NCBI RefSeq assembly: GCF_000007225.1
Contig: NC_003364.1
Location: 120,001-152,000 of the forward strand
Length of the DNA: 32,000 nucleotides
Direction: 5' to 3'
From: Pyrobaculum aerophilum str. IM2
GTDB lineage: Archaea; Thermoproteota; Thermoprotei; Thermoproteales; Thermoproteaceae
Part shown: piece after piece, positions 4,505-30,424 of the stretch
Layout of the letters: every line of letters begins with the position of its first letter
Numbering within the stretch: position 1 is the first letter of the stretch
Notes under the pieces: model-generated
What the model was told of the DNA's origin: nothing
Databases searched by the model: none
Seen by the model: the letters and a program-made list of their open reading frames with translations, nothing else
Made by a program: the position numbers and the translations under genes

Positions 4505-4737
4505 GCACGCTCTACACGGGAGTCGTGAAGCAGTCGGCGGAGATTATCGGTTCTATTCCCATGCAAGCCGCCGGCGACATGACAGTAGCCATGTGCGTGG
4601 TAAATGGAGTCCCCCTAACCATACGGATAACCACCACCGCCACCATGTCCGGCCAGACCCTTCTACCATCTTGGACATGAACGCCACGAGAGTAGGCCCC
4701 TTCAACGGGGACACCTACCGCAAAATCCTGGCCGAGG

Positions 4738-4902
4738 TCAAGGGCTAGGGCCATCCATCATCACATCCGCCCCGCAGATCAGTCTCAGCGCCTCCCCGGC
4801 CCTTGTGGCCGCCTCCTCCACAGACACAGCCGTAATGTTCACGCGGCCCATCTTCCGCTTCGGCCTTGTAGTGCTAGTAAACCCGCCAGCGGTAATAGTG
4901 GT
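4738..4902 (-). pseudogene. purK-like 3' end remnant (C-terminal ~35 codons of an ATP-grasp N5-CAIR synthase)
   Basis: My minus-strand translation gives ...GFTSTTRPKRKMGRVNITAVSVEEAATRAGEALRLICGADV...*. This parallels the intact PurK C-terminus ...KKEARPRRKMGHVNITGGSLAEVASKARLALQLIYG. At the DNA level, 4831..4866 aligns with 5811..5846 with many mismatches (shared blocks atgttcac and ggcccatcttcc). The frame is closed upstream by a TAG at 4903..4905, and no start codon or N-terminal domain is present. Confidence 0.55.
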
Positions 4903-4979
4903 CTATATTGTGAGTCGTTGAGATAGTAGAAATGGGCTGAGAGCGCCAGGGGGTAATATATATAAGCCTCAGAGGGGGC

Positions 4980-5468
4980 ATGGACATGCTCGTCCCTGAG
5001 GTGTTGGCAAGAGAGCTCGCGAGGAGGGGCTTAGGGCCCGACTTCGTGGCCGACGTGCTGATAGCCGCGCTGGGGCTCGACCCGAGAGACGCAGCGAGGG
5101 CGCATGCGGAGCTCGCCTTGGGCATGTACAGAGAGGGCTTGGCCTACGTGGAGAGGGGGGACGTGGCGCAAGCCAGCGACAAGTTGTACAAAGCCGTCGA
5201 GGAGGGGGTGAAGGCGCTGGCCTTCTCCCGGGGGCTCCCCGAGGCGGAGGAGGCCGCGTCGAAGGGCAGATGGACAGTGGCCTTGCTCGACAAGGCAGCG
5301 GCTAAGCTCGGCGATGTGGTATACAGGGCGTGGGACGCCGCCTACTTCCTCCACGTCAACGGCTTCCACGAGGTCAGGATAGATATCGACATCGTGAAGG
5401 CCAAGCTCAAGGCCATTGAGCCGATGATGGAGCTCGTGAAGGAGCTAGCCGGACGCGGCCTCTCATAG
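4980..5468 (+). CDS. PaREP1-family protein (Pyrobaculum repeated-gene family, helical)
   Basis: 162-aa all-helical ORF. The pattern ...ASDKLYKAVEEGVKALAFSRG...KGRWTVALLDKAAAKLGDVVYRAWDAAYFLHVNGFHE... matches my memory of the archaeal PaREP1/PaREP8 family. A strong TATA (TAATATATATAAG, 4954..4966) lies 20-26 nt upstream of the two candidate ATGs (4980 and 4986). Confidence 0.6.
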   Translation: MDMLVPEVLARELARRGLGPDFVADVLIAALGLDPRDAARAHAELALGMYREGLAYVERGDVAQASDKLYKAVEEGVKALAFSRGLPEAEEAASKGRWTVALLDKAAAKLGDVVYRAWDAAYFLHVNGFHEVRIDIDIVKAKLKAIEPMMELVKELAGRGLS

Positions 5469-5521
5469 AATGCGCCGCGCGGCTAGGCCGCCGGCTCCGA
5501 GCAAGACCGGGGCCGCTCCGA

Positions 5522-5761
5522 GAGGAGGCGGATGTTGAGGGGTCGGGAGACCTCCACGCGCTCTACGGCGACCTCATGAAGACGTTACACGAGGAGGCCT
5601 TCTACGAGGGCGTGTACCAGCCGGAGGAGGTGAAATATGCAGCGCCGCAGTATATCAGCCAGTTACGACAGCTTGTCTCCCACCCGCCGACGATGCGAGT
5701 TCACTACCAGAGGCGGCGTAGGATCTCAAGACCAGCCTCGGGAAGTCGCGGCCGTAAATAA
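5522..5761 (+). pseudogene. PaREP1-like C-terminal fragment, antisense-overlapping the purK 3' tail
   Basis: The frame reads ...GDLHALYGDLMKTLHEEAFYEGVYQPEEVKYAAPQYISQLRQLVS. This parallels the C-terminus of the neighbouring PaREP1 protein (GDVVYRAWDAAYFLHVNGFHEVRIDIDIVKAKLKAIEPMMELVK) in the pattern GD..LH..F.E..V..I..LV. No N-terminal half is present. Confidence 0.4.
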
Positions 5762-6794
5762 GTTGCAACGCCAGTCTGGCCTTCGAGGCGACCTCCGCGA
5801 GGGATCCGCCGGTGATGTTCACATGGCCCATCTTCCTCCTAGGCCTCGCCTCCTTCTTGTAGTACCAGTAGATCTTCCCGATCCTCTCCAGCTCAGCCAC
5901 GGGGAGCTTCTCAATAGGCACCCCCAGTATGTTGACCATCGCCGTCGGGGCAATCGCCTTGGGCTCCCGCACCGGGAGCCCCAAGACGGCCTTCACGTGG
6001 TTCTCGAACTGGCTCGCGTCAGTCTCAAGAGTCCAGTGAGCTGTGTTGTGAACTCTCGGCGCTATCTCGTTGGCCAATATCCTCCCGTCGCTTGTCTCGA
6101 AGAACTCCACAGCGAGGACCCCCACGTATTTCCACCTGTCAAGTATTCTGTGGACATACTCGTAGGCCTCCTCGGGGGCCTTCACGGGCGCGATGTTCCA
6201 AACCAATATGCCGTGTACGTAGTAGTTCTGGGCAGGCGGGTAGAAGTAGACGTTGCCATTCTCCGCCCTAACGGCCACAATAGAGAACTCCCTCTTGATG
6301 TCCACGTACTCCTCCACCAAGAGCTCCCCCTCGAGCCTTGAAATGGCCCCGGCCTCCCTCGGGTATACGTACTGCCCCTTCCCGTCGTATCCGCCCGTCG
6401 GCACCTTGACCACGGCCCTCCTCATGGACTCCGCAATTTTAAGCGCCTCCTCCCACCCGGCCGCCCGGCGCCACGGCACGGTGGGAACGCCTATCGAGTC
6501 GAAAAAGGCCCTCTCCTCCAGCCGGCTCTTCTTCAGACGCAGGTACGCCAGCGGCGGCCTGAGCTTGCCCAGCCTCTCAGCCCTCTCCGCGAGGGAGATG
6601 TCCACGTTCTCAAACTCGAAGGTGACGGCGTCGGCCCTCTCCACCTCTTCAAGCGGGTCCGCAGGCCTCCGCGCGCACCTATAGGCCGGCGCAGAGGAGT
6701 CGGGGTCGTACACAGAGAAATCCACAGGAATCCTCTGCGACTCCCAGCACATCATCAGCGCAAGTTGCCCCCCGCCGAGGACGAAGAGCCGCAT
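5655..6794 (-). CDS. purK: N5-carboxyaminoimidazole ribonucleotide synthase PurK (ATP-grasp)
   Basis: 379-aa ORF with an N-terminal MRLFVLGGGQLALMM, an ATP-grasp core and the C-terminal RKMGHVNITG motif. A TATA-like AGTTTAAAAGC (6813..6823) lies about 24 nt upstream of the ATG at 6794. The last ~30 residues (RDFPRLVLRSYAASGSELASSAGGRQAVVTG) look non-canonical and overlap the PaREP1 fragment. Confidence 0.93.
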   Translation of the reverse strand: MRLFVLGGGQLALMMCWESQRIPVDFSVYDPDSSAPAYRCARRPADPLEEVERADAVTFEFENVDISLAERAERLGKLRPPLAYLRLKKSRLEERAFFDSIGVPTVPWRRAAGWEEALKIAESMRRAVVKVPTGGYDGKGQYVYPREAGAISRLEGELLVEEYVDIKREFSIVAVRAENGNVYFYPPAQNYYVHGILVWNIAPVKAPEEAYEYVHRILDRWKYVGVLAVEFFETSDGRILANEIAPRVHNTAHWTLETDASQFENHVKAVLGLPVREPKAIAPTAMVNILGVPIEKLPVAELERIGKIYWYYKKEARPRRKMGHVNITGGSLAEVASKARLALQLIYGRDFPRLVLRSYAASGSELASSAGGRQAVVTG

Positions 6795-6861
6795 GGCGAA
6801 GTAGATTACTACAGTTTAAAAGCTTTAGTTAAAAAACAGACGGGGAACGCTGATGTAGCCC

Positions 6862-6898
6862 CGCCTTGTATTTAAACGTTTGGTGAAAAGGACTTTAT
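6862..6898. repeat. Left copy of a 37-nt imperfect direct repeat (putative att site) bracketing the island
   Basis: 6862..6898 (cgccttgtatttaaacgtttggtgaaaaggactttat) aligns base for base with 19456..19492 (cgcctgatgtttaaacgtctagtgaaaaggactttat). 32 of 37 positions match, with uninterrupted 9-nt and 16-nt blocks. Confidence 0.75.
6872..6898 (-). pseudogene. Displaced purE 3' end remnant (last 8 codons plus stop)
   Basis: The minus strand reads ATA AAG TCC TTT TCA CCA AAC GTT TAA, giving IKSFSPNV*. The intact purE end at 19466..19492 reads IKSFSLDV*. The remnant lies 77 nt upstream of the purK ATG and is followed, like the real purE end, by a T6 tract 35-41 nt after the stop (6831..6836 versus 19426..19431). 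Weaker similarity may continue to about 6960. Confidence 0.65.
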
Positions 6899-7221
6899 AT
6901 AAAGAGCACCACGTCCCGTATCTTCTTCACGCTCGCTTGACGCGCACGGCCCACTCCAGCAGGTCTAATGGTGCTGGGCAACGGCGATTAGGTTTTTGAG
7001 GGTGAGGCTCGCCTTGCCACCACTCTCCGCCCTGTCGATTATCCTATCCCCCGTCGCCCTCATGGACCGCGACGGCTATGTGCGGCGTTTTCACCTTCAC
7101 GTCGGCGTTTATCTCGCCCTTCTAGTCTGTCGGGGGTTGTATGCCCTCTTGCAACGGCTTTTCGCCGGGTTGCCTATCGTCTTGACGCCGTATTTTGAGC
7201 CAACTAGCTTAAGCAAGAGAT

Positions 7222-7572
7222 CTACGCCGTAGAGCTCCCGGCAGGCGCGGGCCCATGCCCGGATGCGAGGAGCGAGAGATGTAGCCAAAGACTACACGCG
7301 GTGGGTAGAGGCCCTGGTTTGTACACCACGCCTAATGAAAACACGGCACCAATATGCTTCAAATAGATAGCCGCATCGCCCCCAACCTCGGCGAGCCAGA
7401 CCTCCCCCGTCGCCGACAGCTGTACGCTCCTCATAGGCAGCTTCTTCCATTTCGCAGGGAGGTGATAGTATTATAGCAACGGGGGATCGCGCCCAGCGAA
7501 ATACGGCTCGAAATACTTCCACAGCTCCTCTGCAGCCTTTAGGAACACGCCGAGGGTGCCTGGAGGACAGCC
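7222..7572 (-). pseudogene. Degenerate ORF with an in-frame TAA; unidentified gene remnant (weak resemblance to an IS200/IS605 TnpB N-terminal region)
   Basis: One minus frame reads ...TLGVFLKAAEELWKYFEPYFAGRDPPLL*YYHLPAKWKKLPMRSVQLSATGEVWLAEVGGDAAIYLKHIGAVFSLGVVYKPGP..., with a TAA at 7471..7473. The segments LPAKWKK and IYLKHIG loosely recall the FKxK and lPkiG segments of TnpB. This is by eye only. Confidence 0.25.
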
Positions 7573-8006
7573 TCAACGCGACATAGGGCACCGCATACGT
7601 AGCGTAAAACCCCGGCGTCTTTCTGCCACATTAATGGGAGAATGGCATTTTACGTGTTCAGGCGCGTGATTTTTGATGTGGGCCCTCACGGCTGTTCTGC
7701 TCTCCGTCTGCTGTTGGTGTGGTGTGCGTAGGCCTATGTGCACAGGTTGCCGGCTATCCGGCCTTGTGGGGAAACGTCGGCGTAGAGCCGTCCAGCATAG
7801 GGCATGTGGCGTCGGTTGTGTGGTAGTGGAGGATGGCGGGAGTGTGGGCCAAAAGATCGGGGTGCGGAGCGGTGGATGATGTGATTGGTGCGCAAGCCGG
7901 CCGGCTTCAACACTGCGTTAATGTGCGTATGGGCGTGAAACGGTTCTTATAGGGCCGTAAACCGTTTAGCATTATTTTATAGAAAAATTATTAATAATTT
8001 TAACAG

Positions 8007-8900
8007 TTGCACCTCTTCGTGACAAACTACTGGCTCACCATGTTGCCTGAGGAAAATTTTAAGCGCGTCGTAGAGCTGGGCCTCTACGGGCTTCCTGCAA
8101 GCGTCGCAGAGATGGCGAAGAGGATAAAGCCAGGCGATAGGCTAGTGGTGTACATAATGAAAGAGGGCTGTAGAGAGCTGTGCCAGTCCTTCGCCGCGGT
8201 GCTAGAGGTGGTGGGCCAGTGGAGGAGGTCTAATAAGCCCATCTGGCCAGATGAGGCGAGGGAGGGACGCGTTAAGTACCCTTTGGTGGTGGACGTGAAG
8301 GCTGTGGCGATGGGCAAGGCTGAGTTTTCCAAAATAAGGGAGAGGCTGGAGGAGTTGATAGGCGCCGAGGGCCTAGACCCCAAGAAGCTGAGGCTCTACG
8401 CGCTTTACTACGCCAAGCGCCCCTTGCCGCCCGGCGTCGGCGAGTTCATCGAGGAGTTGCGGAGGGCGGAGCGGCGCGCGGCCGGGGAGGAGCTCTCCCA
8501 TAAAGAGCTCGTGGAGGCGGTTGTGGAGGTTGGGCGTTGGCTTGGCTTTAGAGTGGAGCGGGAGTACCGCATAGACAACTTCAGGGTAGACGCGGCGTTT
8601 TTCAAGCCGCCGAGGGCTACGCCTTATGCCGTCGTCGAGGTGCATGTAGGGGGCGACGTGTATAAGGACTTGGCCGCGCTGAAGCACGCCTATGACAAAT
8701 ACGGCTGCAAGCTGGTGTACGTACTGGCGAGGGACGAGGAGCAAGTCGCCAAGTTGCTAGACGAGGCGCTTCAAGGCGCCTTCCACGAGATTAGAGAACA
8801 CGTCGCCGTGGTGAAGCCCATGGAGTTGCTCAAACTACGCGAAGCGCTGAGGCAAGAGGGGGTTATGAGGCTTTTAAAGTGGCTAGAGGTGGTAAAATAG
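8007..8900 (+). CDS. EVE (PUA-like) domain protein fused to a C-terminal PD-(D/E)xK-like nuclease domain; candidate modification-dependent (type IV-like) restriction enzyme
   Basis: The N-terminal ~130 aa (NYWLTMLPEENFKRVVELGLYGLP...IKPGDRLVVYIMKEG...FAAVLEVVGQW...IWPDE...KYPLVVDVKAV) fits the archaeal EVE/UPF0310 pattern. The C-terminal part (WLGFRVEREYRIDNFRVDAAFF...PYAVVEVHVGGDVYKDLAALKHAY) has an E...D...E-x-H/K restriction-endonuclease-like arrangement. The track start is TTG 8007. GTG 8019 lies about 25 nt downstream of the very AT-rich box 7985..8002 and is the more likely leaderless start. Confidence 0.65.
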   Translation: MHLFVTNYWLTMLPEENFKRVVELGLYGLPASVAEMAKRIKPGDRLVVYIMKEGCRELCQSFAAVLEVVGQWRRSNKPIWPDEAREGRVKYPLVVDVKAVAMGKAEFSKIRERLEELIGAEGLDPKKLRLYALYYAKRPLPPGVGEFIEELRRAERRAAGEELSHKELVEAVVEVGRWLGFRVEREYRIDNFRVDAAFFKPPRATPYAVVEVHVGGDVYKDLAALKHAYDKYGCKLVYVLARDEEQVAKLLDEALQGAFHEIREHVAVVKPMELLKLREALRQEGVMRLLKWLEVVK

Positions 8901-8935
8901 CCGCTAGGCATATAAATCAGCGGGTACATGTCTTC

Positions 8936-9112
8936 ATGAAATGCCCCTACTGCGGCTCGGAAAACGTGGAGGCTGTCAAGAGCTGGGAGATGCCGAAGAT
9001 GGGCTTCAATGTAACTCACTACCGTTGCAAAAGCTGCAGCGGCTTGTTCAACCACTACGTCGGGAGGGGCAAGGAGTTCGTGTTGAGGGTGGGGCTGAGA
9101 CGTAGGGGCTGA
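8936..9112 (+). CDS. Zinc-ribbon miniprotein (58 aa, CxxC...CxxC)
   Basis: MKCPYCGSENVEAVKSWEMPKMGFNVTHYRCKSCSGLFNHYVG... has two CxxC pairs. A TATA-like ATATAAAT at about 8909..8916 lies 20-27 nt upstream of ATG 8936. The track's longer 8879 start overlaps the upstream gene and precedes the TATA. A T6 tract follows at 9325..9330. Confidence 0.6.
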   Translation: MKCPYCGSENVEAVKSWEMPKMGFNVTHYRCKSCSGLFNHYVGRGKEFVLRVGLRRRG

Positions 9113-9406
9113 GTCCGCGGTGTTAAGGAGCTGAATAGTAATATGAAAAATTTCTATTTAAACTCCAGCTGGCAGTTTATACGTGAGGAGCGGCCTTCCT
9201 CGTATTGTCAATCGGGATAATTCGGCTACAGCCATTCCGGCACGCTTGCATATAACCGGAAGCAGTATATCAGTAAGGCGAGGCTCGGCCGTGGAGGGCG
9301 CAACAGGTGGTCTTAAGGGATTTTTTCTTAACATGAAGAGGCTATTCACCGTTCCCCTAGACACCTCGCGGGAGCTCTACATAAGGGATTACAGTCGGCT
9401 GAGGCC

Positions 9407-12400
9407 ATGACCCAGGTCGGCATACCCCAGATAGATCTTGACGACGTTTTGCTGTGTATAAGAAGAGCCGTCCAAATGGCCCGTAGCGAGGAGGACGTGA
9501 GGGTGAGGGTCTCCTCGTGTATAGAAGAGAAGATTTTGAAGCCGCTTGGCCTTGAACACGCCGTTGGTAGGTACGAGTATACGCTTGTTTCTGGGGCTAG
9601 GGTAGACGCGCTTTACGGACACGTGATCATCGAATACAAGGCGCCTGGCAAACTGTCCTCAGCCAGCGACGTCGCCAAGGCCAAGGAGCAAGTGGTGAGA
9701 TATATCATGGGTGAGGCTGGGAGCAAGTCTGAGTGGCCGCGGTATCTCGGCGTGATAATAAGCGACAGAATCGCCTTTGTGAAATACGATCCGCAAAGCG
9801 GCACTTGGATACTAAGAGGGCCTTACGACATCCGGCGCGAGGTGGTGATAAAGCTGATAGAGGCTCTGAGAGGCCTCAGGAGGAAAAACCTCGACGTAAA
9901 CAACCTAGTCAAAGACTTCGGCCCCAACTCGCCAATAGCAATGAAAACTATCAAGCTTCTGTACCGCAAACTTACAAGTAGCAACAACCCCAGGGTCAAG
10001 GTGCTCTTCGACGACTGGATGAGACTTTTCAAACAAGCCACTGGCTACAACCCAGAGGAGCTGGAGGAGTTGCCCAAGCTGGCCGAGGAATATGGGCTGA
10101 CGGGCGGGGTGAACTACGATGCGTTGCTATTCGCAATACACACCTACTACGCTCTGATAATGAAGCTGATCGCCGCCGAGATAGCTTACCTGTACGGCGG
10201 CGGGAAGTTCTACAGATCCTACGTGGCGGAGCTTGACGACGCGTACTCCAGGGAGGGGGTTGAGGGCATTAGGCAGGTTTTGAGAGATCTTGAGAGCGGC
10301 GGCGTGTTTAGAAATTTACTAAATATTGAGAATTTCCTCGAGGGGGACTACTTCTCGTGGTACCTCGACGAGCTAGATAAAGAACTTGCCGATGCAGTTG
10401 CCGAAATTGCCAGGAGGCTATCCGACTACGAGGTGGCGGCGCCTCAGCTAGAGCCCGAGTTCGCCCGCGACTTACTGAAGAGACTATACCAAAACCTCGT
10501 GCCTGGGGAGATACGGCACAAGCTGGGCGAGTACTACACGCCTGATTGGCTGGCCGAGCTGGTGCTAGACGAGGTGGGGCTGAGCCTAAAAAATTTGCTT
10601 AAAATGGGCGAGGAGGATCCCCTTAAGCCGTTGAAAATAAGGGTACTAGACCCGGCGTGCGGCTCCGGCACCTTCTTAATGCTTTACATAAGTAGGCTTA
10701 GGAGATACGCCGAGGAGCACTATATGACAGATCAGCTCCTGAGCTATGTGTTGGAGAACGTCGTCGGCTACGACCTCAACCCCTTGGCCGTGCTGACTGC
10801 TAGGACAAACTACCTCTTGGCGGTAGCGGATCTGCTCAGCTATGCGAAGGGAAGAGTTGAGATACCGATATACCTAGCCGACTCTATTATGATTGAAAGA
10901 AACTCGCACTTAGCCGGCGACGTGTACTTACTTAGATCTGTCGTCGGCGAGTTCCAAATACCAAGAAGCGTGGTGGAGAAAGGATTGTTGCCCGAAGTAT
11001 TATCAGAGGTGGCTCAAGCGCTGAGAAATAGGTACACCCCCAAGGACTTCGCGGAGAGGGTGAGGTATAGATTCAAGGAGCTGGATCAAGGCGACGTCAA
11101 TATACTAAAAGGACTCTACGAGAAGTTGTATAAGCTCGAAGAGGAGGGGAAAGACGCTGTGTGGATCTCAGTCTTGAGAAACGCCTTCGCGCCTGTCCTC
11201 AAAGGCAAATTCGACTACGTAGTTGGAAATCCGCCATGGGTAAACTGGGAGAACCTACCAGAAAGCTATAGGAATGTAAGTAGGGATCTATGGGCTAAGT
11301 ATGGACTCGCCGAGATCAAAGGCAAGACGGGATTAGGCAAGGTTAAAAGAGATTTGGCAATGCTCTTCGTAGCAAGAAGCTTCGATCTGTACCTCAGGGA
11401 GGGGGGCAAGCTGGGATTCCTAGTACCATTTACAGTATTTAAAATGCAGGCTGGTGCGGGCTTTAGAGATTTCCTAGCTAGGAAGACCCGTATACATGTT
11501 ATCCATGACCTGGTAACTCTATTTCCATTTGAAGGGGCAACAAATAGGACGGCGGCAATAGTTATCGAAAAGGTTTGTAGCCTATCCGATACCGGAGGCA
11601 AATGCACACAGATGATAGAGACTTTTAAGAATAATATCAATGGAGTGAGACATGTAATATGGGTTAATACGTCAAGAAGAGCTATACCAACAGACATGCC
11701 ATTAGAGGAGGTGCTAAAGAGGACAAGGAGATACGAGGCTGTAATGGCCCCGATGATGCCAAACGACCCCTCCAGCCCGTGGATGCAAGCAACGCCATCG
11801 GTAATCAAGCTGATAAGAAAATTGACAAGCGGAAATCAGTACTACGAGGCTCACGAGGGGGTTAACACGGCGTTGAACCAAGTATACTTTGTAAAGATAC
11901 TTGAAAAGCTCCCTAACGGCATGTTAAAGATAACCAACCCTCCCGAGCCGGGTCAAAAGAAGAAGGTTAAACAGGTAGATGCTGTAGTAGAGCCAGATCT
12001 GATTTACCCACTAATAAGAGGGAGAGATGTGAAGAAATGGTATGTGGGATTTGAAGATAGGTATATTATTCTTCCTATAGATTCGCGAGGCGATCCTATT
12101 AGTCACGATAAAATGAAAACTAAATATCCAAATACCTACGACTACTTCTTCAGATTTTTTAAAGAACTTATAAGTAGGAGTGGTGAACCATATAAATCTA
12201 AGCTAGAACCTTATAGAAAGCTACCTTTTGAAAAAGCTGAAAAAATTGCGCCCCCCTTCTATTGGATATTTAACGTAGTTCCTAGTCTAGCGCCTTACAA
12301 AGTTATCTGGAAATCAATTGCTGGTGCTATTACTGGGAAGGCTGTTGATTTTGCCTGCGCCGTTGTGGGGCCTTTTACGGATAAATTCCTCGGTTCTAAA

Positions 12401-13126
12401 ATTGCTATACCTGAGCATAGCACAATTTTCATAGGGTTTGATAACGCTGATGAGGCTTATTATGTTGCTGGCGTCCTCAACTCAACGCCTGTAAAGACCG
12501 TAATCGCGTCGTATACCTATGAACTTAGACAAGAAACACACATAGTAGACAACGTTAAAATCCCCAAGTACGATCCAGAGAACGAGTTGCATAAGAAGAT
12601 AGCTGAACTCTCCAAGAGGGCTCACGACCTTGCCAAAGAGATACACGAGGAGAACAGGAGAAATCTTGAGACTGAGCTTAGGAAGGTTGAGGAGGAGTTG
12701 GATATCGTTGTTGCTAAGCTGTTTGGTATGGGCGAGGCTGAGCTTAGGGAGTTTAAGAAGTTGTTAGCTATTCTTTCTGGTAGTGAGTATTCTGAAGAGG
12801 AAGAGGAAGTTGCTGTACCGGAGAAACCTACTGTTCACGTTCTGAATACTTCTCTGCAACCTGGCGTTGAATCATATATAGAAGTTGACGTGGTAAACCC
12901 CTCAGGTGAGGAGCTGGTGTTTACCTACGAGCTGCCTTGGGGCAAGGGCTCTTTCAGTATAATTACCGGGAGGTACCGCATACCTACGCCGCCTTTGAAG
13001 CCCGGCAGATACAGTGGCGTTCTTAAGTGGAGGTGGCGGGGGGAGGAGCACTCTGTTGACATCGTCGTGGAGGTGGCGCAGCCGGAGGGGCCGAGGAGGA
13101 GGAGCACGCTTTTCGGCTCCAGATGA
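9407..13126 (+). CDS. Type IIG/IIL-like (MmeI-style) fused restriction-modification protein: N-terminal PD-(D/E)xK nuclease motif, gamma-class N6-adenine DNA methyltransferase, TaqI_C-like target-recognition region, and an extra C-terminal beta-rich domain
   Basis: The nuclease-like motif is D67-x8-E76-x-K78 (ARVDALYGHVIIEYKAPGKL...AKEQVVRYI; D at 9605..9607, ExK at 9632..9640). The pre-motif is GEYYTPDWLAELV. SAM motif I is VLDPACGSGTFL (10643..10678) and motif IV is NPPW (11228..11239). The TRD-like part contains EAHEGVNTALNQVYFV and LIYPLIRGRDVKKWYV. The canonical C-terminal helix is VVAKLFGMGEAELREFKKLL. It is followed by an acidic linker (EEEEE) and a ~110-aa beta-rich tail. Confidence 0.85.
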   Translation: MTQVGIPQIDLDDVLLCIRRAVQMARSEEDVRVRVSSCIEEKILKPLGLEHAVGRYEYTLVSGARVDALYGHVIIEYKAPGKLSSASDVAKAKEQVVRYIMGEAGSKSEWPRYLGVIISDRIAFVKYDPQSGTWILRGPYDIRREVVIKLIEALRGLRRKNLDVNNLVKDFGPNSPIAMKTIKLLYRKLTSSNNPRVKVLFDDWMRLFKQATGYNPEELEELPKLAEEYGLTGGVNYDALLFAIHTYYALIMKLIAAEIAYLYGGGKFYRSYVAELDDAYSREGVEGIRQVLRDLESGGVFRNLLNIENFLEGDYFSWYLDELDKELADAVAEIARRLSDYEVAAPQLEPEFARDLLKRLYQNLVPGEIRHKLGEYYTPDWLAELVLDEVGLSLKNLLKMGEEDPLKPLKIRVLDPACGSGTFLMLYISRLRRYAEEHYMTDQLLSYVLENVVGYDLNPLAVLTARTNYLLAVADLLSYAKGRVEIPIYLADSIMIERNSHLAGDVYLLRSVVGEFQIPRSVVEKGLLPEVLSEVAQALRNRYTPKDFAERVRYRFKELDQGDVNILKGLYEKLYKLEEEGKDAVWISVLRNAFAPVLKGKFDYVVGNPPWVNWENLPESYRNVSRDLWAKYGLAEIKGKTGLGKVKRDLAMLFVARSFDLYLREGGKLGFLVPFTVFKMQAGAGFRDFLARKTRIHVIHDLVTLFPFEGATNRTAAIVIEKVCSLSDTGGKCTQMIETFKNNINGVRHVIWVNTSRRAIPTDMPLEEVLKRTRRYEAVMAPMMPNDPSSPWMQATPSVIKLIRKLTSGNQYYEAHEGVNTALNQVYFVKILEKLPNGMLKITNPPEPGQKKKVKQVDAVVEPDLIYPLIRGRDVKKWYVGFEDRYIILPIDSRGDPISHDKMKTKYPNTYDYFFRFFKELISRSGEPYKSKLEPYRKLPFEKAEKIAPPFYWIFNVVPSLAPYKVIWKSIAGAITGKAVDFACAVVGPFTDKFLGSKIAIPEHSTIFIGFDNADEAYYVAGVLNSTPVKTVIASYTYELRQETHIVDNVKIPKYDPENELHKKIAELSKRAHDLAKEIHEENRRNLETELRKVEEELDIVVAKLFGMGEAELREFKKLLAILSGSEYSEEEEEVAVPEKPTVHVLNTSLQPGVESYIEVDVVNPSGEELVFTYELPWGKGSFSIITGRYRIPTPPLKPGRYSGVLKWRWRGEEHSVDIVVEVAQPEGPRRRSTLFGSR

Positions 13127-14535
13127 GCGAGCTGAATAACAAGGTGAAGAGGTGCTTCGGCGACTACGCCGTGGATAAGAGGCTCGCCTACGAGCTGGAG
13201 TTGGCTAAGCTGCCTAGATACGTGGCGGAGTTTCTAATCTCGGAGTTCATGACGCTGGGCGGGGACTGGGAGGGCAAGCTGAGGAGCTTTATTAGGGAGC
13301 GCTACTACGAGCCTGAGGAGAAAGAGGTCGTTAAGCACAAGCTTGTGACTGAGGGCGTGGTTGAGCTTATCGACGAGCTTAGGGTCTACGTAGATGTGGA
13401 GACGGGGGCTCACATAGGGGTCATACACGCCCTTGACATATGGGCTGAGGTGCCTGTGGACATCGTCGAGAGGAACAGGGCGACGCTGACAACCGGCATG
13501 TGGGGCTTGATAACTCTACAGCGGTGGGAGGGGGTCAGAGAGATTTTGGGGAGGCCCGTGTCCGTCGTCGTGACAGACTTCAAGCCCTTCCAAGCGCCGG
13601 ATACAGACCCCAAGATCCTGGAGGAGGGGAGGGGGTGTTTCACGCTGGAGGAGTGGGTGGAGGTTTTGATAAACACCATAGGCCTTGACCCCGCCGTCTA
13701 CAGCCCCCGGCAGAGGCTCCTCCTCCTCGCCCGCCTAGTCTCCCTAGTAGAGGGGAATGTAAACATGGCTGAGTTTGGGCCTAGGCAGACCGGCAAGACG
13801 TACCTCTATAGAAACGTGAGCAACTACGTGAGGATAATCTCAGGGGGCGTCATATCCCCAGCCGCCTTGTTCTACAATCTGAGGACTAAAGTGCCGGGCG
13901 AGCTGGCCCTCAAGGACGCGGTGGTTTTCGACGAGGTGAGCAAGGTGAGGTTTCCCAACCCCGACGAGATGATGGGCAAGCTTAAGGACTACATGGAGAG
14001 CGGCCACTATGAGAGGGGGGACAAAAAGGTGGTGTCCGACGCCTCTCTGGTCTTTATGGGCAACGTGTCGGTTGAGCTGACTTCCGAGGGCTATGTACCG
14101 GTGGAGGACTTGACCTACGTCTTGCCGGAGCCCATGAGGGACTCCGCGTTTATTGACAGGATACACGGCCTTCTTCCAGGCTGGGAGCTTCCGAAAATAT
14201 CTCAGAGCAAATACCACCTGTCTAAGGGCTACGGCGTGGCATCCGACTACTTCGCCGAGGCGTTGCACGGCATGAGGAAGGAGAGCTTGTCGGGGCTTGT
14301 GGGAAGGCACGTGGAGCTTTCTGAAAACTTCAAGATTAGGGATGAGAAGAGCTTTAAGAGAATTACCAGTGGCTTGTTGAAGCTCCTATTCCCCGACAAG
14401 ACTTTTGACAAGAAGGAGCTCAAAACCATCGCGGAGTTCGCGCTGGAGTTGAGGCAGAGGGTCAGAGATTGGCTACACAAGATCGCACCGGGGGAGTTCC
14501 CACGCGAAGTCCTCAGCGTAAGAGTTCTGCCATAG
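13123..14535 (+). CDS. BrxL-like AAA+ ATPase (COG4930 / PF13337 / TIGR02688-like) without a Lon protease domain
   Basis: 470-aa ORF whose ATG overlaps the upstream stop (ATGA at 13123..13126). The N-terminus (FGDYAVDKRLAYELELAKLPRYVAEFLISEF...YYEPEEKEVVKHKL...VELIDELRV) and DSAFIDRIHGLLPGWELPK match my memory of the BrxL ATPase family. Walker A is GPRQTGKT (13777..13800). Walker B is AVVFDEV (D/E at 13930..13935). Sensor-1-like is LVFMGN. The protein ends about 90 aa after the ATPase core, so there is no protease domain. Confidence 0.7.
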   Translation: MSELNNKVKRCFGDYAVDKRLAYELELAKLPRYVAEFLISEFMTLGGDWEGKLRSFIRERYYEPEEKEVVKHKLVTEGVVELIDELRVYVDVETGAHIGVIHALDIWAEVPVDIVERNRATLTTGMWGLITLQRWEGVREILGRPVSVVVTDFKPFQAPDTDPKILEEGRGCFTLEEWVEVLINTIGLDPAVYSPRQRLLLLARLVSLVEGNVNMAEFGPRQTGKTYLYRNVSNYVRIISGGVISPAALFYNLRTKVPGELALKDAVVFDEVSKVRFPNPDEMMGKLKDYMESGHYERGDKKVVSDASLVFMGNVSVELTSEGYVPVEDLTYVLPEPMRDSAFIDRIHGLLPGWELPKISQSKYHLSKGYGVASDYFAEALHGMRKESLSGLVGRHVELSENFKIRDEKSFKRITSGLLKLLFPDKTFDKKELKTIAEFALELRQRVRDWLHKIAPGEFPREVLSVRVLP

Positions 14536-14787
14536 CCATTCTCCACAGTCACGGATATCCCCCGTTCCACATTTGAGTGGCTATTGCCGAGACATGTACC
14601 TGTGTTGCAGATCGGCGTAATACTTAACTTCACGCCGAAAGTGACTTCTTAAAGATTCTCGAAGAGTAGGTAAGACCGCCCGTTGAGAACTTCCGAGGAC
14701 ATCGTAAAAGGCTGGCGTAGTTATATTTCCTAAGTGATATAATCTATGGTTCGTTTTCTTCATTAATACCTAGGCGTATTTCCCTTA

Positions 14788-15093
14788 GTGAAAGTAAGAT
14801 TGGTGGACAGGATAGGTGAAGTTGGTCTGTACGAGGTCTCGGCCGATTTGGCGTGGAGTGATTATCTGTATGTTGTGTTCAAGGCTAGGCGCGAAGTGGG
14901 AACTGCGATCACCAAGATCATATACTCAGATGGGAAGTGGTTACTGCCGTTGCCGACAGTTGCCGAGGACGTGGAGCTAATCTACGTGGGACCTGTGGAA
15001 GGTCTGAGGTGGGAGAGTTCTGAAGGCCAACACGCCGGTTCTGAAGGCGTAGCTCTTGGCAATGGCGACGCCGTTGGGGGCTATTCTCAGTAG
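14788..15093 (+). CDS. Hypothetical small protein (uncertain)
   Basis: GTG-start ORF. The first ~63 codons lie in the convergent intergenic gap and read protein-like (KVRLVDRIGEVGLYEVSADLAWSDYLYVVFKARREVGTAITKIIYSDGKWLLPLP). A TATA-like ATTAATA lies about 20-29 nt upstream. The last ~39 codons overlap the herA 3' end on the opposite strand, which weakens the call. Confidence 0.3.
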   Translation: MKVRLVDRIGEVGLYEVSADLAWSDYLYVVFKARREVGTAITKIIYSDGKWLLPLPTVAEDVELIYVGPVEGLRWESSEGQHAGSEGVALGNGDAVGGYSQ

Positions 15094-16785
15094 CTGGCTG
15101 TACTCTCTTAGGCCGAAGCTCTCCAATACGGTTTCATCGCTTCTGAATACTACTTTTGTGTTAGACAGCTGGGTCACTAGGGGGTTTAGGTCTTCCGGCA
15201 TGTGGGTTGCAAACGCCACTCCTACGCGGCGCACTCTTCCCAAGCGCGTCAGTTTGTTTATCATATCCTCTACCGCCTCTTTGCTTACGTTTTCGCCTCT
15301 CTCTGTCTGGGGGAAGTACTCGTGCGCCTCGTCTACCAGCACCAGCATTGGCTTGGGCGTGCCTGTTCTCAGCTCCCTGTCCTTTATCTCCATAAGCTTT
15401 CTCAACAGCCTATACACCACGATTGAGGCCGCAGTCGGTTTTTCCATAAAGAGCTCTAAGTATACAACTGCCGGGTTTTCAAATACCGTGTCGTAGTTAG
15501 GCTCTCCTATCTTGATGCAAGGCTTATTTGTTTTGCTTAGACACCACTCCACGTCGAGTATGTCGGTGCCCTTCAACATAAAAAAGCCGCGTATGATGCT
15601 CTCTATTTGCGAGGAATGTAATTTTAACTTCTCTTTTATTTGTCCTTCAAGCTTATTTATCTTCTCTACAGCAACACGTATCGTTAAGTTGTTTGGATCG
15701 CCTTCGCCAATCTTTTCTACTAGAAGCGAAGCTATGTCTTTGTATAGCAGTGCTATTCTTTGCGTGCCAAAGAATGGGAAGAGGGATGGGACGTCGAATA
15801 TGACGTCTCTTAGGTTTAAGGCCCATGTCACAACATCAATCTCCGCATTGGACAGATACACGGTGAAGCCCTTTACATATCCCACGCCATTTTTCTCCTC
15901 TGCCTCAGGCACCACATCGCCGGAGATGCCGGCTCGTCTTAAGAAGAGTTGCCCTAGGCCGTAGGACACGGCCTCTGCGAAGAGCTTCGGGTCATTAATT
16001 ACAGAGAGATCGCCTTCCTGCTCGATCTTTTCCAGATATTCGTTTGCGTATCTGATGAGCTCTTTGTTTTCTCTAAAGAGGAAGCTCTGGGTTACTGGCC
16101 ATATTATAGTAAGCTTGTCGAGTGGCTTGTAAATTGAGTCTGGCGCCGGGTAAACTAGGTGTATGAAGTCCCCCTGGATGTCGAAGGCGAGCGGTATCAC
16201 GCCGAGGTCCCAATACGCAGAAATGGCCAAGTTTTTGAGAAACGTGGTCTTGCCGGCGCCGGTGGTGCCCACCACTAGCATGTGGGTGAAGAGGGCTTCT
16301 TTGGGCAGCCTCACATATATGTCTAGCTCTTTGCTTACGTAAAGCTTGCCCAACAACGCCCCGTGCTGAGGTATGCCGAGCATAATTGCTATGACTTCGG
16401 GAGAGGGCGCATAGACCGCGCTTGTGGGGTCTACAGGCGACGCCGGCTGGGTGGGGTCGCAGTTCTCCAAGCTCGGACACTCGGCAATTGGCTCAAGCTC
16501 CAGGAGCGCCGGGGTGGTGAGGCCTTGGGGATCGTTGATGTATGTATCCATCGGCTCTATACCTAACAAGGCAACAAGGTGTCTTCTCTGAATTGACGTA
16601 ATCCGCGCAAGAATAAGCGATTTGTGAACCGCTGTTTCTATGAGGAGGAGCTCGCCGACCTTTAGCAACCTAGATTTATATACATCAAATGGGATTTCCA
16701 CCAATATTTTATGCTGTGGGCCGACGGCTATCACCTCGCTTGCCGAGACGATGCCTATTTTTTCACCGAGTTTTTCACCGAGCAT
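14977..16785 (-). CDS. herA: HerA-type FtsK/HerA-superfamily ATPase (HAS-barrel plus P-loop)
   Basis: 602-aa ORF. The N-terminal HAS-barrel-like region is GIVSASEVIAVGPQHKILVEIPF...VGELLLIE...LARITSIQRR. Walker A is GTTGAGKTT (16243..16269). Walker B is PMLVLVDEAHEYFP, with a downstream RLGRVRRVGVAFATH. Its start overlaps the nurA stop by 11 nt. Confidence 0.85.
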   Translation of the reverse strand: MLGEKLGEKIGIVSASEVIAVGPQHKILVEIPFDVYKSRLLKVGELLLIETAVHKSLILARITSIQRRHLVALLGIEPMDTYINDPQGLTTPALLELEPIAECPSLENCDPTQPASPVDPTSAVYAPSPEVIAIMLGIPQHGALLGKLYVSKELDIYVRLPKEALFTHMLVVGTTGAGKTTFLKNLAISAYWDLGVIPLAFDIQGDFIHLVYPAPDSIYKPLDKLTIIWPVTQSFLFRENKELIRYANEYLEKIEQEGDLSVINDPKLFAEAVSYGLGQLFLRRAGISGDVVPEAEEKNGVGYVKGFTVYLSNAEIDVVTWALNLRDVIFDVPSLFPFFGTQRIALLYKDIASLLVEKIGEGDPNNLTIRVAVEKINKLEGQIKEKLKLHSSQIESIIRGFFMLKGTDILDVEWCLSKTNKPCIKIGEPNYDTVFENPAVVYLELFMEKPTAASIVVYRLLRKLMEIKDRELRTGTPKPMLVLVDEAHEYFPQTERGENVSKEAVEDMINKLTRLGRVRRVGVAFATHMPEDLNPLVTQLSNTKVVFRSDETVLESFGLREYSQLLRIAPNGVAIAKSYAFRTGVLAFRTLPPQTFHRSHVD

Positions 16786-17797
16786 AACACTCCATTAAGC
16801 TGTCATACGTGAGGTTGAGCCCCTTCCCCATTAGTTTTACGCAGATTAGGCGTGCTAGTCTCTTGCTGAGGTCTTTTGCTAGCTTATCTACTAACGCTAT
16901 GTGGTAGGGCAGGCCTGGGACAACTCTGTTTCTTAACAACGTGGGTAACACCTCCTCGGCGTACTCCTTGCGAAATGCCTCAACCCTGAATATCGAGCTT
17001 GCGCTGTATATATACCACAGGTAGCGCTCTGGTAGAGGGTGTAATTTACTCTGCCTAAACGTCTGCTTAAATGGCCCGAAGACTACTACGTCTCTGTAAG
17101 ACCTCATGTGCATCCTCCCGAGCTCTGCCACTACCGCCATGTCGTTACACGCAGCGTCTATCCGAATGCCCATCTCCTCGACCCACTCCTTAGCCCTGCA
17201 CAACTTCTTAGACGTCTCTAGGCGTTTCACCACCGCCACTACGCGCTTATCCCACAGCGCCTCCACCCTCCACCAGTCTATTTCTGGAAATCCCCGTATG
17301 CCGTAGTACAAGGGGCCGTCTATTAGCGCAGTTCCCTTCGCCTCTTTAATTAAGGCAATTTCAACGGCCTCTCTTACCACTTTCCCCACTACGTCTTCAG
17401 GCACGTCGCTTTTGAAGAACTTCTCACCGTTTGCGAATCTGTATTTCACAATCGCCACGTCCTCTAGCCTCCTCAGAGCCTCCTCGTCGTCTGACTGCAA
17501 TGCCACGTGCTTTACGTCCCTAAAGCCGGGAATAGTCAAGATGCCCAGCTTAGTGTAGGCGACTCCGACGGCGAGAAATAGGCGAAATGTAGGCGTGGTG
17601 ATAGTCCGGAGAGAGCCATCTACGGCGTAGTCCACTGGGGGCCCATTGGGTGGAAGGTCGTCGTAGTGGAACACGCCAGCCTCGGAGCTGTGGATATCGC
17701 TGAGGTCCTCCTCCTGGATCTGGATCCTAGGACCCAACGGCTTTTTGATTGAGGATAAGTTGTCTATAAGCGCCTCTAGTCTCTTCAAAAACTCCAT
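16775..17797 (-). CDS. nurA: NurA-domain nuclease
   Basis: 340-aa ORF with NurA-like motifs in order: DYAVDGSLR (D60), REAVEIALIKEAKGTALIDGPLYY, VVAVVKRLETSKKL, IFRVEAF and GLPYHIALVDKLAK. It lies immediately upstream of and overlapping herA. A very AT-rich promoter region (17801..17830) lies about 25 nt upstream of the ATG. Confidence 0.75.
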   Translation of the reverse strand: MEFLKRLEALIDNLSSIKKPLGPRIQIQEEDLSDIHSSEAGVFHYDDLPPNGPPVDYAVDGSLRTITTPTFRLFLAVGVAYTKLGILTIPGFRDVKHVALQSDDEEALRRLEDVAIVKYRFANGEKFFKSDVPEDVVGKVVREAVEIALIKEAKGTALIDGPLYYGIRGFPEIDWWRVEALWDKRVVAVVKRLETSKKLCRAKEWVEEMGIRIDAACNDMAVVAELGRMHMRSYRDVVVFGPFKQTFRQSKLHPLPERYLWYIYSASSIFRVEAFRKEYAEEVLPTLLRNRVVPGLPYHIALVDKLAKDLSKRLARLICVKLMGKGLNLTYDSLMECYAR

Positions 17798-18505
17798 ATC
17801 AAAATTTTAATAAAAAGGTATAATTATTAAAGCTATTCCCAGAGTTGTCACAGTGAGGTAACGGCGACGTGGGCGGACAGAGTTTGAGGGCGACCGCCTA
17901 AATCGCCTTACTTAAGTCCAAAGGCCCTGGCGACAAGGCAAGTTTTGACAATAGGGCTCCACTATAGCGTTAACAATATGGAGCAGACAAAGCCAGTTGC
18001 AAGCGATATCGCATAATCTGCGCACTACCTGTGACAACCGCTTATGGACAAACCTTCCAAATATGCTTAGGGGATTTACGAGAGCGTTAGCGATAAAGCT
18101 TGAGGAAACCTCCTGATGCATCTAAACCTCATGGAGCTCGGCGGCTTTTACACATGGAATGCGCTGAGGGAGGTTGCAGAACGAGCTTACAAGCTGTCTC
18201 AACAACTTTGTAAAAAACCGGCACTATGCACAACCCCCTCTCGCAACTCGGGTTTATGACGTCTTGTACCACTGCGCATAGAGCCCCCGCAAGCTCTACC
18301 TAGAGCTGGCTAAGCCGTACATCCCATGACAATATTAACAAGGCTTGTATAAATGATATGAGCCGTTCAGACTGCTGTCGTCCGCCGGCCCACGTGGATG
18401 TACGTCGCCTGCAAGGATCGCGGAACGCAATGTCGCAGAAGCAATGAGACAAGGCGCCCACGCAAGTCTCATTTACGCCTAGCAGAGCCCGTCTTTGTTA
18501 AACGG

Positions 18506-19144: not shown

Positions 19145-19455
19145 TTTAAAAAGCTTGACGGCCTAGGGAGGCACGCCGGGATTTTTAACCCTACGCCGAC
19201 GTATATAGCTTGACCGGGAGGAGCTAAACCACCTCGATGGCGTCTAGAACCCTTTCCCCTTATACCCCTCTGCGTTTGGCCCATCGCCCCCACAGCGCTC
19301 CTACTGACGCCGTGAGTGCGGAGTCCCCAGCTTGTGCTCACAAGCGCCGCTTTTTAGCTTAACCCTAATCCTCAAAATCTTGGCGAGGACGTAGAGCCGC
19401 GTGTGGGTGCTACAACGCCCTATTTAAAAAAGGAACAGGTTCGTGGAGAACTACT

Positions 19456-19492
19456 CGCCTGATGTTTAAACGTCTAGTGAAAAGGACTTTAT
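19456..19492. repeat. Right copy of the 37-nt imperfect direct repeat (putative att site), overlapping the purE stop codon
   Basis: See the left copy at 6862..6898; 32 of 37 positions are identical. This copy covers the last 8 codons and the TAA of the intact purE. Confidence 0.75.
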
Positions 19493-19954
19493 GAAGGACT
19501 TGGACAGTACCTCTTCTCTCATCTTTTCCATGTGTTCTTTAACCTTCTGCCTCACCTCTGGGTATTTTATGCCCAGTATCCTGGCGGCGAGATAGGCGGC
19601 GTTGGCGGCGTTGCCTATGGCCACTGTGGCGACGGGAGTGCCCCGGGGCATTTGTACAATTGACAACAGGGAGTCCAGCCCGCCTAAGTGTTTTGTGGGG
19701 ATGGGGACCCCTATGACCGGCAGCGGCGTTAGGGAGGCGGTCATGCCGGGGAGGTGGGCCGCCCCGCCGGCGCCGGCTATTATCACGTCGAATTTCCCCT
19801 CGGCCTCCTTGGCGAATTGGTACATGAAATCCGGCGTCCTGTGGGCGCTGACGACCCGCGCCTCGTAGGGAATGCCCAGCTGCTCCAAGACCTCAAGCGC
19901 CTCTTTCATGACCTCAAGGTCGTTTATCGACCCCATTATAACCGCAACCTTCAT
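19466..19954 (-). CDS. purE: N5-carboxyaminoimidazole ribonucleotide mutase PurE
   Basis: [19 protein letters not shown]...VVSAHRTPD...[17 protein letters not shown]...PVIGVP are PurE hallmarks. A TATA-like TTTATAAA (about 19973..19980) lies about 23 nt upstream of ATG 19954. The track's 20005 start would add 17 non-conserved residues and lies upstream of the TATA. Confidence 0.93.
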
Positions 19955-20025
19955 GTATAATTTTATGCCACGGTTTATAAAGGTGCGGCGCGTTGAAAAT
20001 ATCACTTGCTACGGCGCGTGGCGCC

Positions 20026-30133: not shown

Positions 30134-30424
30134 GTGAGGATAAAGATAAAAGATCTGGCAGAAAACGCCATAACCCCGCTCCCAGAACTGGGGGCATTTG
30201 CCGTAAAGAGGGGCGGAGAGATATACGTCTATAAAGACGAGTGTCCCCACGCCTATTGCAACTTCACTACCTCTGGTCAGTTGGAGGGGGATTACATCAT
30301 ATGCACATGCCACTGGTGTAAATTCGATTTGAGGACAGGGGCCTCTCTGACGCCTGAGCTAACAGCCGAGCCGTTAAGGAAAATTAGCTTTAAGGTGGAG
30401 GGGGAGGAGTTAGTTTTCACCTGA
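30134..30424 (+). CDS. Rieske [2Fe-2S] domain ferredoxin
   Basis: The Rieske ligand pattern is C-P-H-x17-C-T-C-H (ECPHAYCNFTTSGQLEGDYIICTCHW). The 96-aa size fits a stand-alone Rieske ferredoxin. GTG start. Confidence 0.8.
   Translation: MRIKIKDLAENAITPLPELGAFAVKRGGEIYVYKDECPHAYCNFTTSGQLEGDYIICTCHWCKFDLRTGASLTPELTAEPLRKISFKVEGEELVFT

Follow-up and report, generated by a model that had tools for sequence, protein, structure and literature searches.

A mobile NurA–HerA cassette, distinct from the repair pair, in a pur-cluster insertion of Pyrobaculum aerophilum: a candidate module for the destruction of foreign DNA

We analysed a 32,000-nucleotide stretch of the Pyrobaculum aerophilum IM2 genome (NC_003364.1, positions 120,001 to 152,000; hereafter the window), in which a nurA and a herA gene lie within inserted DNA between purK and purE. 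We are confident that the two genes form an intact, genuine NurA–HerA nuclease–translocase operon, that this pair is not the orthologue of the repair NurA–HerA, and that it is a mobile cassette within a real insertion, beside an independent restriction cassette. As to its function, we lean, if only slightly, towards a horizontally mobile, non-housekeeping and translationally coupled module, carried as cargo of a 12.6-kb insertion, that would destroy linear foreign DNA. A defence role is the best-supported function and a plausible one, the evidence for it being that of association. What is new here is the fourth NurA–HerA pair of this organism and its family, their behaviour as a cassette, the exact borders of the insertion, and the recurrent link to a set of genes for a zinc-ribbon protein, a type IIG restriction–modification (RM) enzyme and a BrxL-like ATPase. 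Loci retrieved for comparison are given L numbers.

The two genes are on the reverse strand, and the 11-nt overlap of their open reading frames (ORFs), already seen in the original prediction, was confirmed; the P. ferrireducens pair has an identical 11-nt overlap. The NurA protein matches Pfam PF09376 with E = 1.1e-40 and 140.1 bits (gathering score 21), over model positions 3-253 (251 of the 254 covered). Its residues D60 (in AVDGS), E146, D160 (in D-G-P) and D304 are invariant in 14 relatives in the family alignment, while relatives outside its own clade are only 19-26% identical. No solved NurA structure was matched by sequence, using either the single protein or the family profile. In HerA, the Walker A motif GTTGAGKT (K179), the Walker B motif DEAHE (D485/E486) and the arginines 514, 517 and 519 are invariant in 27 relatives.

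The AlphaFold (AF2) model of HerA has a mean predicted local distance difference test (pLDDT) score of 85.5 and a predicted template modelling (pTM) score of 0.85. When it was searched against the PDB, the top 50 matches were all HerA-type translocases (top E-values 2e-21 to 1e-17, TM-scores of about 0.45-0.6). They include the repair HerAs of T. kodakarensis, D. radiodurans and S. solfataricus, the anti-phage DUF4297–HerA and Sir2–HerA, and also TdpAB. The E-values are similar across the repair and anti-phage structures, and the identity to the solved HerAs is 12-17% throughout, so the protein has the fold of HerA but is no closer to one characterised HerA than to another. The model contains the N-terminal barrel, the RecA-like core, Walker A and B and the arginine finger, and a hexamer would be the expected form. 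The length of the protein, 602 aa, had been taken as unusual and was rejected as a clue, since it lies within the range of solved HerAs and of its own family: the solved proteins span 500 aa (S. solfataricus) to about 590 aa (T. kodakarensis, D. radiodurans), and the window family 520-750 aa. The extra length over the Sulfolobales relatives consists of internal insertions, not of an added terminal domain. At the N-terminus, within the overlap with nurA (16759-16785, reverse strand), the window HerA reads MLGEKLGEKIG and its relatives MLGEKIG, which, from the sequence, looks like a small in-frame duplication (GEKL/GEKI).

The pair also appears to have its own promoter, as first proposed. The 38 nt before nurA (17798-17835) are 87% A+T and contain a TATA-like TTTAATAATTATA about 22-35 nt upstream of the nurA ATG; this would fit an archaeal TATA box from which the mRNA starts with little or no leader. 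The promoter-like stretch falls inside the block that is conserved with the relative L008. A sigma-70 style promoter scan was discarded, because it uses a bacterial consensus that is irrelevant to archaea. Upstream of nurA, the lineages compared have no small ORF in common, and the 101-aa ORF at 14788-15093, which overlaps the herA 3' end and belongs to no family, is probably spurious. The literature under locus tags PAE0242-0247 yielded nothing usable.

Against the NCBIfam equivalog for repair HerA (NF040819) the window HerA scores 39.7 bits, where the cut-off is 970, and the match is confined to residues 474-549. The 32-kb window showed no mre11 or rad50 family, either among the ORFs scanned or in the precomputed locus annotation, in agreement with the original prediction; apart from purL, the type IIG RM enzyme and HerA, no ORF exceeds 600 aa. 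Bernick 2012 lists three NurA–HerA pairs in P. aerophilum, namely PAE0122/0128 (linked to CRISPR and csm6), PAE2154/2155 and PAE2902/2903 (the putative recombination orthologue), together with one orphan HerA. The window pair is absent from that table, which makes it a fourth, strain- or species-level pair. The view of a stand-alone, non-housekeeping pair is therefore upheld by the low equivalog score and by the existence of PAE2902/2903 as the literature's repair orthologue, and the alternative that this is the genome's only pair, orthologous to the repair genes, is contradicted by the three others. The novelty implied for a NurA–HerA pair without Mre11/Rad50 does not stand: Pyrobaculum was known to have three or more pairs, one of them CRISPR-linked, and stand-alone pairs had been described in Thermoproteales and other crenarchaea, one class being catalogued as a CRISPR accessory.

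An exhaustive profile search defines the family to which the window HerA belongs, with 107 representatives (50% clusters) that align over their full length at E ≤ 1e-30. The window HerA scores 644 bits against the family profile, and canonical-size HerAs about 95-100 bits, through the ATPase core only. Named members come from Sulfolobales, Desulfurococcales, Caldisphaera and Vulcanisaeta; no Pyrobaculum paralogue is among the named profile matches listed. Close relatives, with 64-88% identity in HerA, occur only in P. ferrireducens and on two short contigs from public metagenome or sequencing-run assemblies.

Comparison by blastn with the copies found elsewhere delimits a cassette that holds the two genes and the promoter (Table 1). 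It is 84% identical to L008 over 14881-17929, 68% to L009 over 14840-17787 and 64-70% to P. ferrireducens (L007). Its edges are sharp, and the flanks, which differ in every copy, are unrelated in P. aerophilum, P. ferrireducens and L008; in P. ferrireducens they contain a STAND/TPR NTPase of 1405 aa and hypothetical genes. In a second clade, L031-L035, the cassette is 89-99% identical at the DNA level, again with differing flanks. The two clades are sisters in a neighbour-joining tree that has no support values and was built without the P. aerophilum paralogues. NurA adjoins HerA in all of the more than 30 related loci examined. The IMG/VR viral contigs yielded no member of the family, a result that says nothing either way about defence.

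The original prediction had placed the pair in an inserted island, and the duplicated purE/purK junction that flanks the 12.6 kb parting purK from purE bears this out. The flanks are an imperfect direct repeat, of about 120 bp, of the junction between the 3' end of purE and the 5' start of purK. Segments 6776-6792 and 6871-6898 on the left are colinear with 19384-19400 and 19465-19492 on the right (17 nt at 94% and 28 nt at 93% identity), with a start-to-start spacing of 12,594 nt. These repeats are the footprint of an insertion that duplicated, or carried in, a copy of the purE/purK junction. The G+C content of the island is 0.52, falling to 0.49 in the RM gene, against 0.61 in the left flank and 0.54 in the right one. 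All 20 public contigs that encode the exact window HerA have the same arrangement.

Table 1 Coordinates of the features discussed, in window positions
Feature	Position	Strand	Basis or remark
purK	5655-6794	-	Pfam ATP-grasp and PurK_C; host gene left of the island
Left island border	6776-6898		Functional purK start, then a copy of the last purE codons
EVE-domain gene	8007-8900	+	Pfam EVE, 2.4e-12
Zinc-ribbon gene, 58 aa	8936-9112	+	Weak zinc-ribbon matches
Type IIG RM enzyme, PAE0242, 1239 aa	9407-13126	+	PADLOC and Pfam
Short BrxL-like ATPase, PAE0243, 470 aa	13123-14535	+	TIGR02688 and Pfam
NurA–HerA cassette extent	14840-17929		blastn homology to copies elsewhere; 3.1 kb, two genes and promoter
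herA, 602 aa, AAL62654 / WP_011007126	14977-16785	-	HerA/DUF87/FtsK P-loop families
nurA, 340 aa, AAL62655 / WP_011007127	16775-17797	-	Pfam NurA PF09376
Orphan ORF, 206 aa	18506-19126	-	Inside the island
Right island border	19384-19492		Functional purE 3' end, then a remnant of the purK start
purE	19466-20005	-	Pfam AIRC, 2.5e-64; host gene right of the island

The window opens with purL, purF, a PaREP1 gene (4980-5468) and purK, and purE is followed by a NUDIX gene and housekeeping genes. Beyond the PaREP1 gene, downstream of the intact purK, a purK-like fragment (4765-4881, reverse strand; purK residues 312-350, 51% identity, E = 2e-6) is further evidence that the pur cluster has been rearranged. 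In the leftmost 1.1 kb or so of the island (6899-8006) there are only short ORFs of 70-99 aa without a family match, and this part may be decayed element DNA. On the other side, the orphan ORF has no Pfam, NCBIfam, PHROG or PADLOC match and no homologue in the fetched loci, and about 600 nt of apparently non-coding DNA on its nurA side (17930-18505) match no family or fetched locus either. No Rfam family was found in the island or the window. Outside the island, a 245-aa protein (30417-31154, reverse strand) combines a HEPN domain with a minimal nucleotidyltransferase domain, a toxin–antitoxin-like pair in one polypeptide.

The neighbours of the family were then counted at independent loci whose flanks could be used. 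The pair adjoins restriction or methylase genes at at least three of these loci (the window, L031 and L034), CRISPR–Cas genes at at least three (L013, L040 and L042/47) and STAND NTPases at at least two (L007 and L017); housekeeping, PaREP1, transposase-fragment or unknown genes are the neighbours at about nine. The CRISPR-linked loci comprise that of A. brierleyi (L013), where an array of 59 repeats and Csx1 lie beside the pair, L040 with Csx1 and an array of 34 repeats, and L042/47, where Cas3, upstream of the pair, and a cas operon are the neighbours. A pooled scan of 47 neighbours also detected Cas1, Csa1, Csa2/DevR and Csc2, which, being pooled, are not tied to a locus. In L034 the pair stands beside a C5 cytosine methylase and a 357-aa gene of unknown family, and in L033 beside unknown genes. 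The expectation that homologues would be found near defence genes was thus borne out often, at RM, CRISPR and STAND loci, and failed at the roughly nine ordinary or unknown ones. The STAND NTPases directly beside the pair are a 1405-aa protein with TPR repeats in P. ferrireducens (L007 2638-6855) and a 757-aa protein with nSTAND3 and HEAT repeats in Caldisphaera (L017 2379-4652), a lineage distant from P. ferrireducens.

In its gene layout the window pair resembles the bacterial anti-phage systems Sir2–HerA (Nezha) and DUF4297–HerA, which likewise pair a HerA-fold ATPase with one effector gene, as an operon of two genes within a defence island, and the E-values of the fold search are as good for these HerAs as for the repair ones. 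The partner here is NurA, unlike the Sir2 or DUF4297 of those systems, and the window HerA scores only 20.5 and 16.5 bits against the anti-phage HerA equivalogs NF042943 and NF042944 (cut-offs 800 and 850). Assembly-triggered abortive infection is the activation logic of the bacterial HerA systems, to which we liken the window pair by fold and gene layout only. A second parallel, one of inferred function between unrelated proteins, is with RecBCD/AddAB, the end-dependent helicase–nucleases that finish restricted DNA. In bacteria these act after restriction or during CRISPR adaptation, and NurA–HerA stands in a similar setting, beside an RM enzyme in two lineages and beside CRISPR in others. 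We know of no Chi-like control for NurA–HerA.

For the window pair we infer complex formation, substrate and antiviral effect as follows. The HerA ring, a hexameric FtsK/HerA-type translocase, would load on free double-stranded DNA ends and feed the DNA into a dimer of NurA, an RNase-H-fold nuclease, which would degrade it processively. The target would be linear foreign DNA, such as the products of cleavage by the adjacent restriction enzyme or of CRISPR interference, and the pair may also provide fragments for the uptake of CRISPR spacers.

Several observations weigh against this reading. To our knowledge, no experiment ties any NurA–HerA pair to virus resistance. The predicted NurA model, made from four sequences, is of low confidence (pLDDT 36), so that the Pfam match and the motifs are the basis for the nuclease fold. 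The neighbourhood counts are lower bounds from a small set of loci with no background control, and in about half of the related loci the genes next to the pair are housekeeping or unannotated ones (Metallosphaera L014-16, L021, L039, L041/44, L048 and L022-24). The pair is compositionally unremarkable, with a G+C content of 0.50-0.52 against 0.54 for the window. Finally, domain-family and tRNA scans of the island found no integrase, replication gene, tRNA or att-type tRNA target; the element has either decayed or arrived by recombination.

The original prediction had also pointed out that the pair adjoins restriction-type genes and converges on a methyltransferase/ATPase operon, and had suggested that the two arms could be one larger system. 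The arrangement is as described: a type IIG RM enzyme and a BrxL-like ATPase are encoded on the forward strand, and herA ends 441 nt from the ATPase gene on the opposite one. The RM enzyme matches the PADLOC model REase_MTase_IIG over its full length (1328.9 bits, residues 18-1125), as well as the Pfam families Eco57I, MmeI_Mtase and N6_Mtase. It has a PD-ExK-like motif, read by eye as D67...E76-x-K78, and combines nuclease, methylase and specificity in one polypeptide, as defines type IIG. In the 3' part of its gene (12668-12782, forward strand) there is an imperfect 49-nt direct repeat, with 71% identity and 66-nt spacing, which corresponds to a repeated helical segment of the ELRKVEEELD / ELREFKKLL type. 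The ATPase reaches 627.8 bits against TIGR02688 (cut-off 329.3) and contains the Pfam domains BrxL_N and BrxL_ATPase. With bacteriophage exclusion (BREX) systems this arm shares a PglX-like adenine methylase domain and a BrxL-family ATPase. Unlike in BREX, there is no PglZ or BrxA/B/C among the island ORFs, the PglX models score 48.8 where the cut-off is 400, and the BrxL protein has no Lon protease domain.

The short BrxL of this arm is highly conserved. Proteins that are 70-97% identical to it form more than 100 clusters from hot-spring archaea (Pyrobaculum, Ignisphaera, Saccharolobus, Acidilobus and Thermofilum), and its relatives number more than 1,796 in all. A core of the 58-aa zinc-ribbon protein, the type IIG RM enzyme and the short BrxL (window 8936-14535) recurs in L026-29, L031 and L057-64, with an EVE gene as a frequent companion of RM–BrxL, as in L026-29, L057-59 and L061. 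The zinc-ribbon homologue lies directly upstream of the RM gene in L026/28, L057/59 and L062/63, is present in L031, and was left behind in L035. Elements with SSV-type integrases, PrimPol or Cdc6-like genes are the usual carriers of the core, which by itself resembles a minimal BREX-like or RM hybrid. In an Ignisphaera metagenome-assembled genome (L057 9715-12785), unannotated genes for proteins of 291 and 730 aa follow BrxL at the place that NurA–HerA takes in L031. The C-terminus of the 730-aa protein shows weak, non-significant NurA-like motifs (VGISKTHSYSRIL; PLHKADKLCKKL), and the two genes may be another effector pair for the same cassette.

It is conceivable, if rather unlikely, that the two arms form one composite archaeal defence system, in which a methylation-reading arm licenses or recruits NurA–HerA as a processive DNA shredder. 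The stricter form, in which NurA–HerA is an obligate part of a BREX-like system of zinc-ribbon protein, type IIG RM/PglX-like methylase and short BrxL, and acts as its DNA-destroying arm under the control of methylation state or BrxL, we consider unlikely. The juxtaposition is found a second time, in the metagenome locus L031, where a zinc-ribbon gene, RM (66% identical to PAE0242), BrxL (75%), a 650-nt spacer, NurA (29%) and HerA (40%) follow one another; RM, BrxL, NurA and HerA are on one strand there, and NurA–HerA has its own A+T-rich upstream region. The window clade and that of L031 are the two sisters of the tree, and the association with RM–BrxL recurs across this deep split; it may be ancestral there, yet it is facultative. 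In addition, TdpAB appears in the fold-search list and PADLOC returns a mad8 match, and HerA/FtsK-like ATPases act in other modification-dependent defences (DndH, TdpA, and Mad8 of MADS), which provide a parallel.

The locus L035 also speaks for the composite. Its positions 4698-8141 equal L031 2589-11809 minus exactly RM–BrxL (L031 2775-8483), with the zinc-ribbon gene and NurA–HerA kept; the borders of the block are the zinc-ribbon gene and the herA stop. This suggests a clean deletion from a composite block of zinc-ribbon gene, RM–BrxL and NurA–HerA.

The distribution of the two arms speaks against a composite system. Five of the seven independent RM–BrxL contexts have no NurA–HerA and no remnant of it (the P. 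arsenaticum type, Ignisphaera, S. shibatae, L061 and L062-64), and the P. arsenaticum-type locus is 74-89% identical to window 8026-14540, that is, to EVE, zinc-ribbon, RM and BrxL genes. Conversely, P. ferrireducens, L033 and L034 carry NurA–HerA without RM–BrxL. The arms are separate transcription units, convergent in the window and in tandem with the 650-nt gap in L031, and the RM enzyme, with its apparent PD-ExK motif, does not need an external nuclease.

Among catalogued defence families, the closest to the window pair are Cas HerA and Cas NurA, from the nurA–csm6–herA cluster of Thermoproteales (PADLOC PDLC01055/56), which were described by Bernick 2012, Vestergaard 2014 and Shah 2018 (clusters 57/58). 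The PADLOC models for type III-coevolved proteins are the best match of the window HerA (7.4e-59, 198 bits) and the window NurA (8.8e-12, 43 bits), and of every family member tested (HerA about 200 bits, NurA 43-98 bits). Canonical-size HerA prefers other PADLOC models. The window and P. ferrireducens NurAs score 43-51 bits, and the Sulfolobales NurAs tested 77-98 bits. To judge by these scores, the window family looks like a sister group of the catalogued CRISPR-associated HerA/NurA and not like a core member of it. The two families are alike in being crenarchaeal, non-housekeeping and always co-encoded, and some relatives of the window pair lie beside CRISPR arrays, Csx1 or Cas3.

A CRISPR accessory that works in trans with the type I-A/III systems of P. 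aerophilum, some tens of kb away, by processing DNA ends for spacer acquisition, is nonetheless a doubtful explanation of the pair. It would account for the PADLOC match and for the three relatives directly beside CRISPR arrays, Csx1 or Cas3, and an adaptation role has been proposed for the nurA–csm6–herA cluster (Bernick 2012). However, the 32-kb window contains no cas gene, csm6 or CRISPR array, the neighbours in the closest clade are RM genes and STAND NTPases rather than cas genes, the scores suggest a sister group of the catalogued family, and P. aerophilum already has a CRISPR-linked pair in PAE0122/PAE0128.

It is improbable that the pair is a redundant or specialised DNA-repair paralogue, active in end resection and uninvolved in defence, whose place in a variable region is a coincidence. 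With the housekeeping HerA–NurA (herA–mre11–rad50–nurA; structures 4D2I/2YGK from S. solfataricus and 9X1L/M from T. kodakarensis) the window pair shares both domain families, the HerA fold as judged from the model, the ATPase motifs of HerA, the acidic residues of NurA, and adjacent, overlapping genes. A hexamer–dimer translocase–nuclease machine would thus be the natural expectation. Pyrobaculum keeps several such pairs, and many relatives have non-defence neighbours. Against a repair function, the window HerA is very divergent from repair HerA, and the pair lies in an insertion with defence cargo, apart from mre11 and rad50 and from the separate orthologue; its distribution is patchy, at the level of strains, and the cassette shuffles between unrelated contexts.

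Least probable of all is a function for the mobile element itself, in replication, transfer, packaging or competition with other elements: HerA/FtsK ATPases do serve conjugation and the packaging of viruses, the island was inserted and has duplicated borders, relatives of RM–BrxL ride on integrase/PrimPol elements and there are weak PHROG matches to terminase/FtsK-like families (38-57 bits), but no integrase, replication, capsid or conjugation gene was found among the island ORFs scanned (Pfam, NCBIfam, PHROG), the family is absent from the IMG/VR viral contigs, and what always accompanies HerA is a nuclease rather than a portal or coupling partner.

Little has been mapped of how archaea resist viruses other than by CRISPR and restriction. 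An antiviral role has been suggested for CRISPR-linked NurA–HerA pairs and again, in 2026, for the T. kodakarensis complex. The window pair offers a compact test case: it occupies 3.1 kb, has its own putative promoter, is not the essential repair pair, retains its active-site motifs, and in nature is found beside a restriction partner in some loci and apart from one in others. Degradation of foreign DNA by the pair would reveal how archaea, having no RecBCD, dispose of restricted or CRISPR-cut DNA and perhaps also how they obtain spacers; in the opposite case, an explanation would still be needed for the numerous paralogous NurA–HerA pairs of crenarchaea. Should the composite arrangement prove true, a BREX-like system would gain an explicit destructive effector, and NurA–HerA would be the first experimentally tractable archaeal counterpart of immunity of the Sir2–HerA type.

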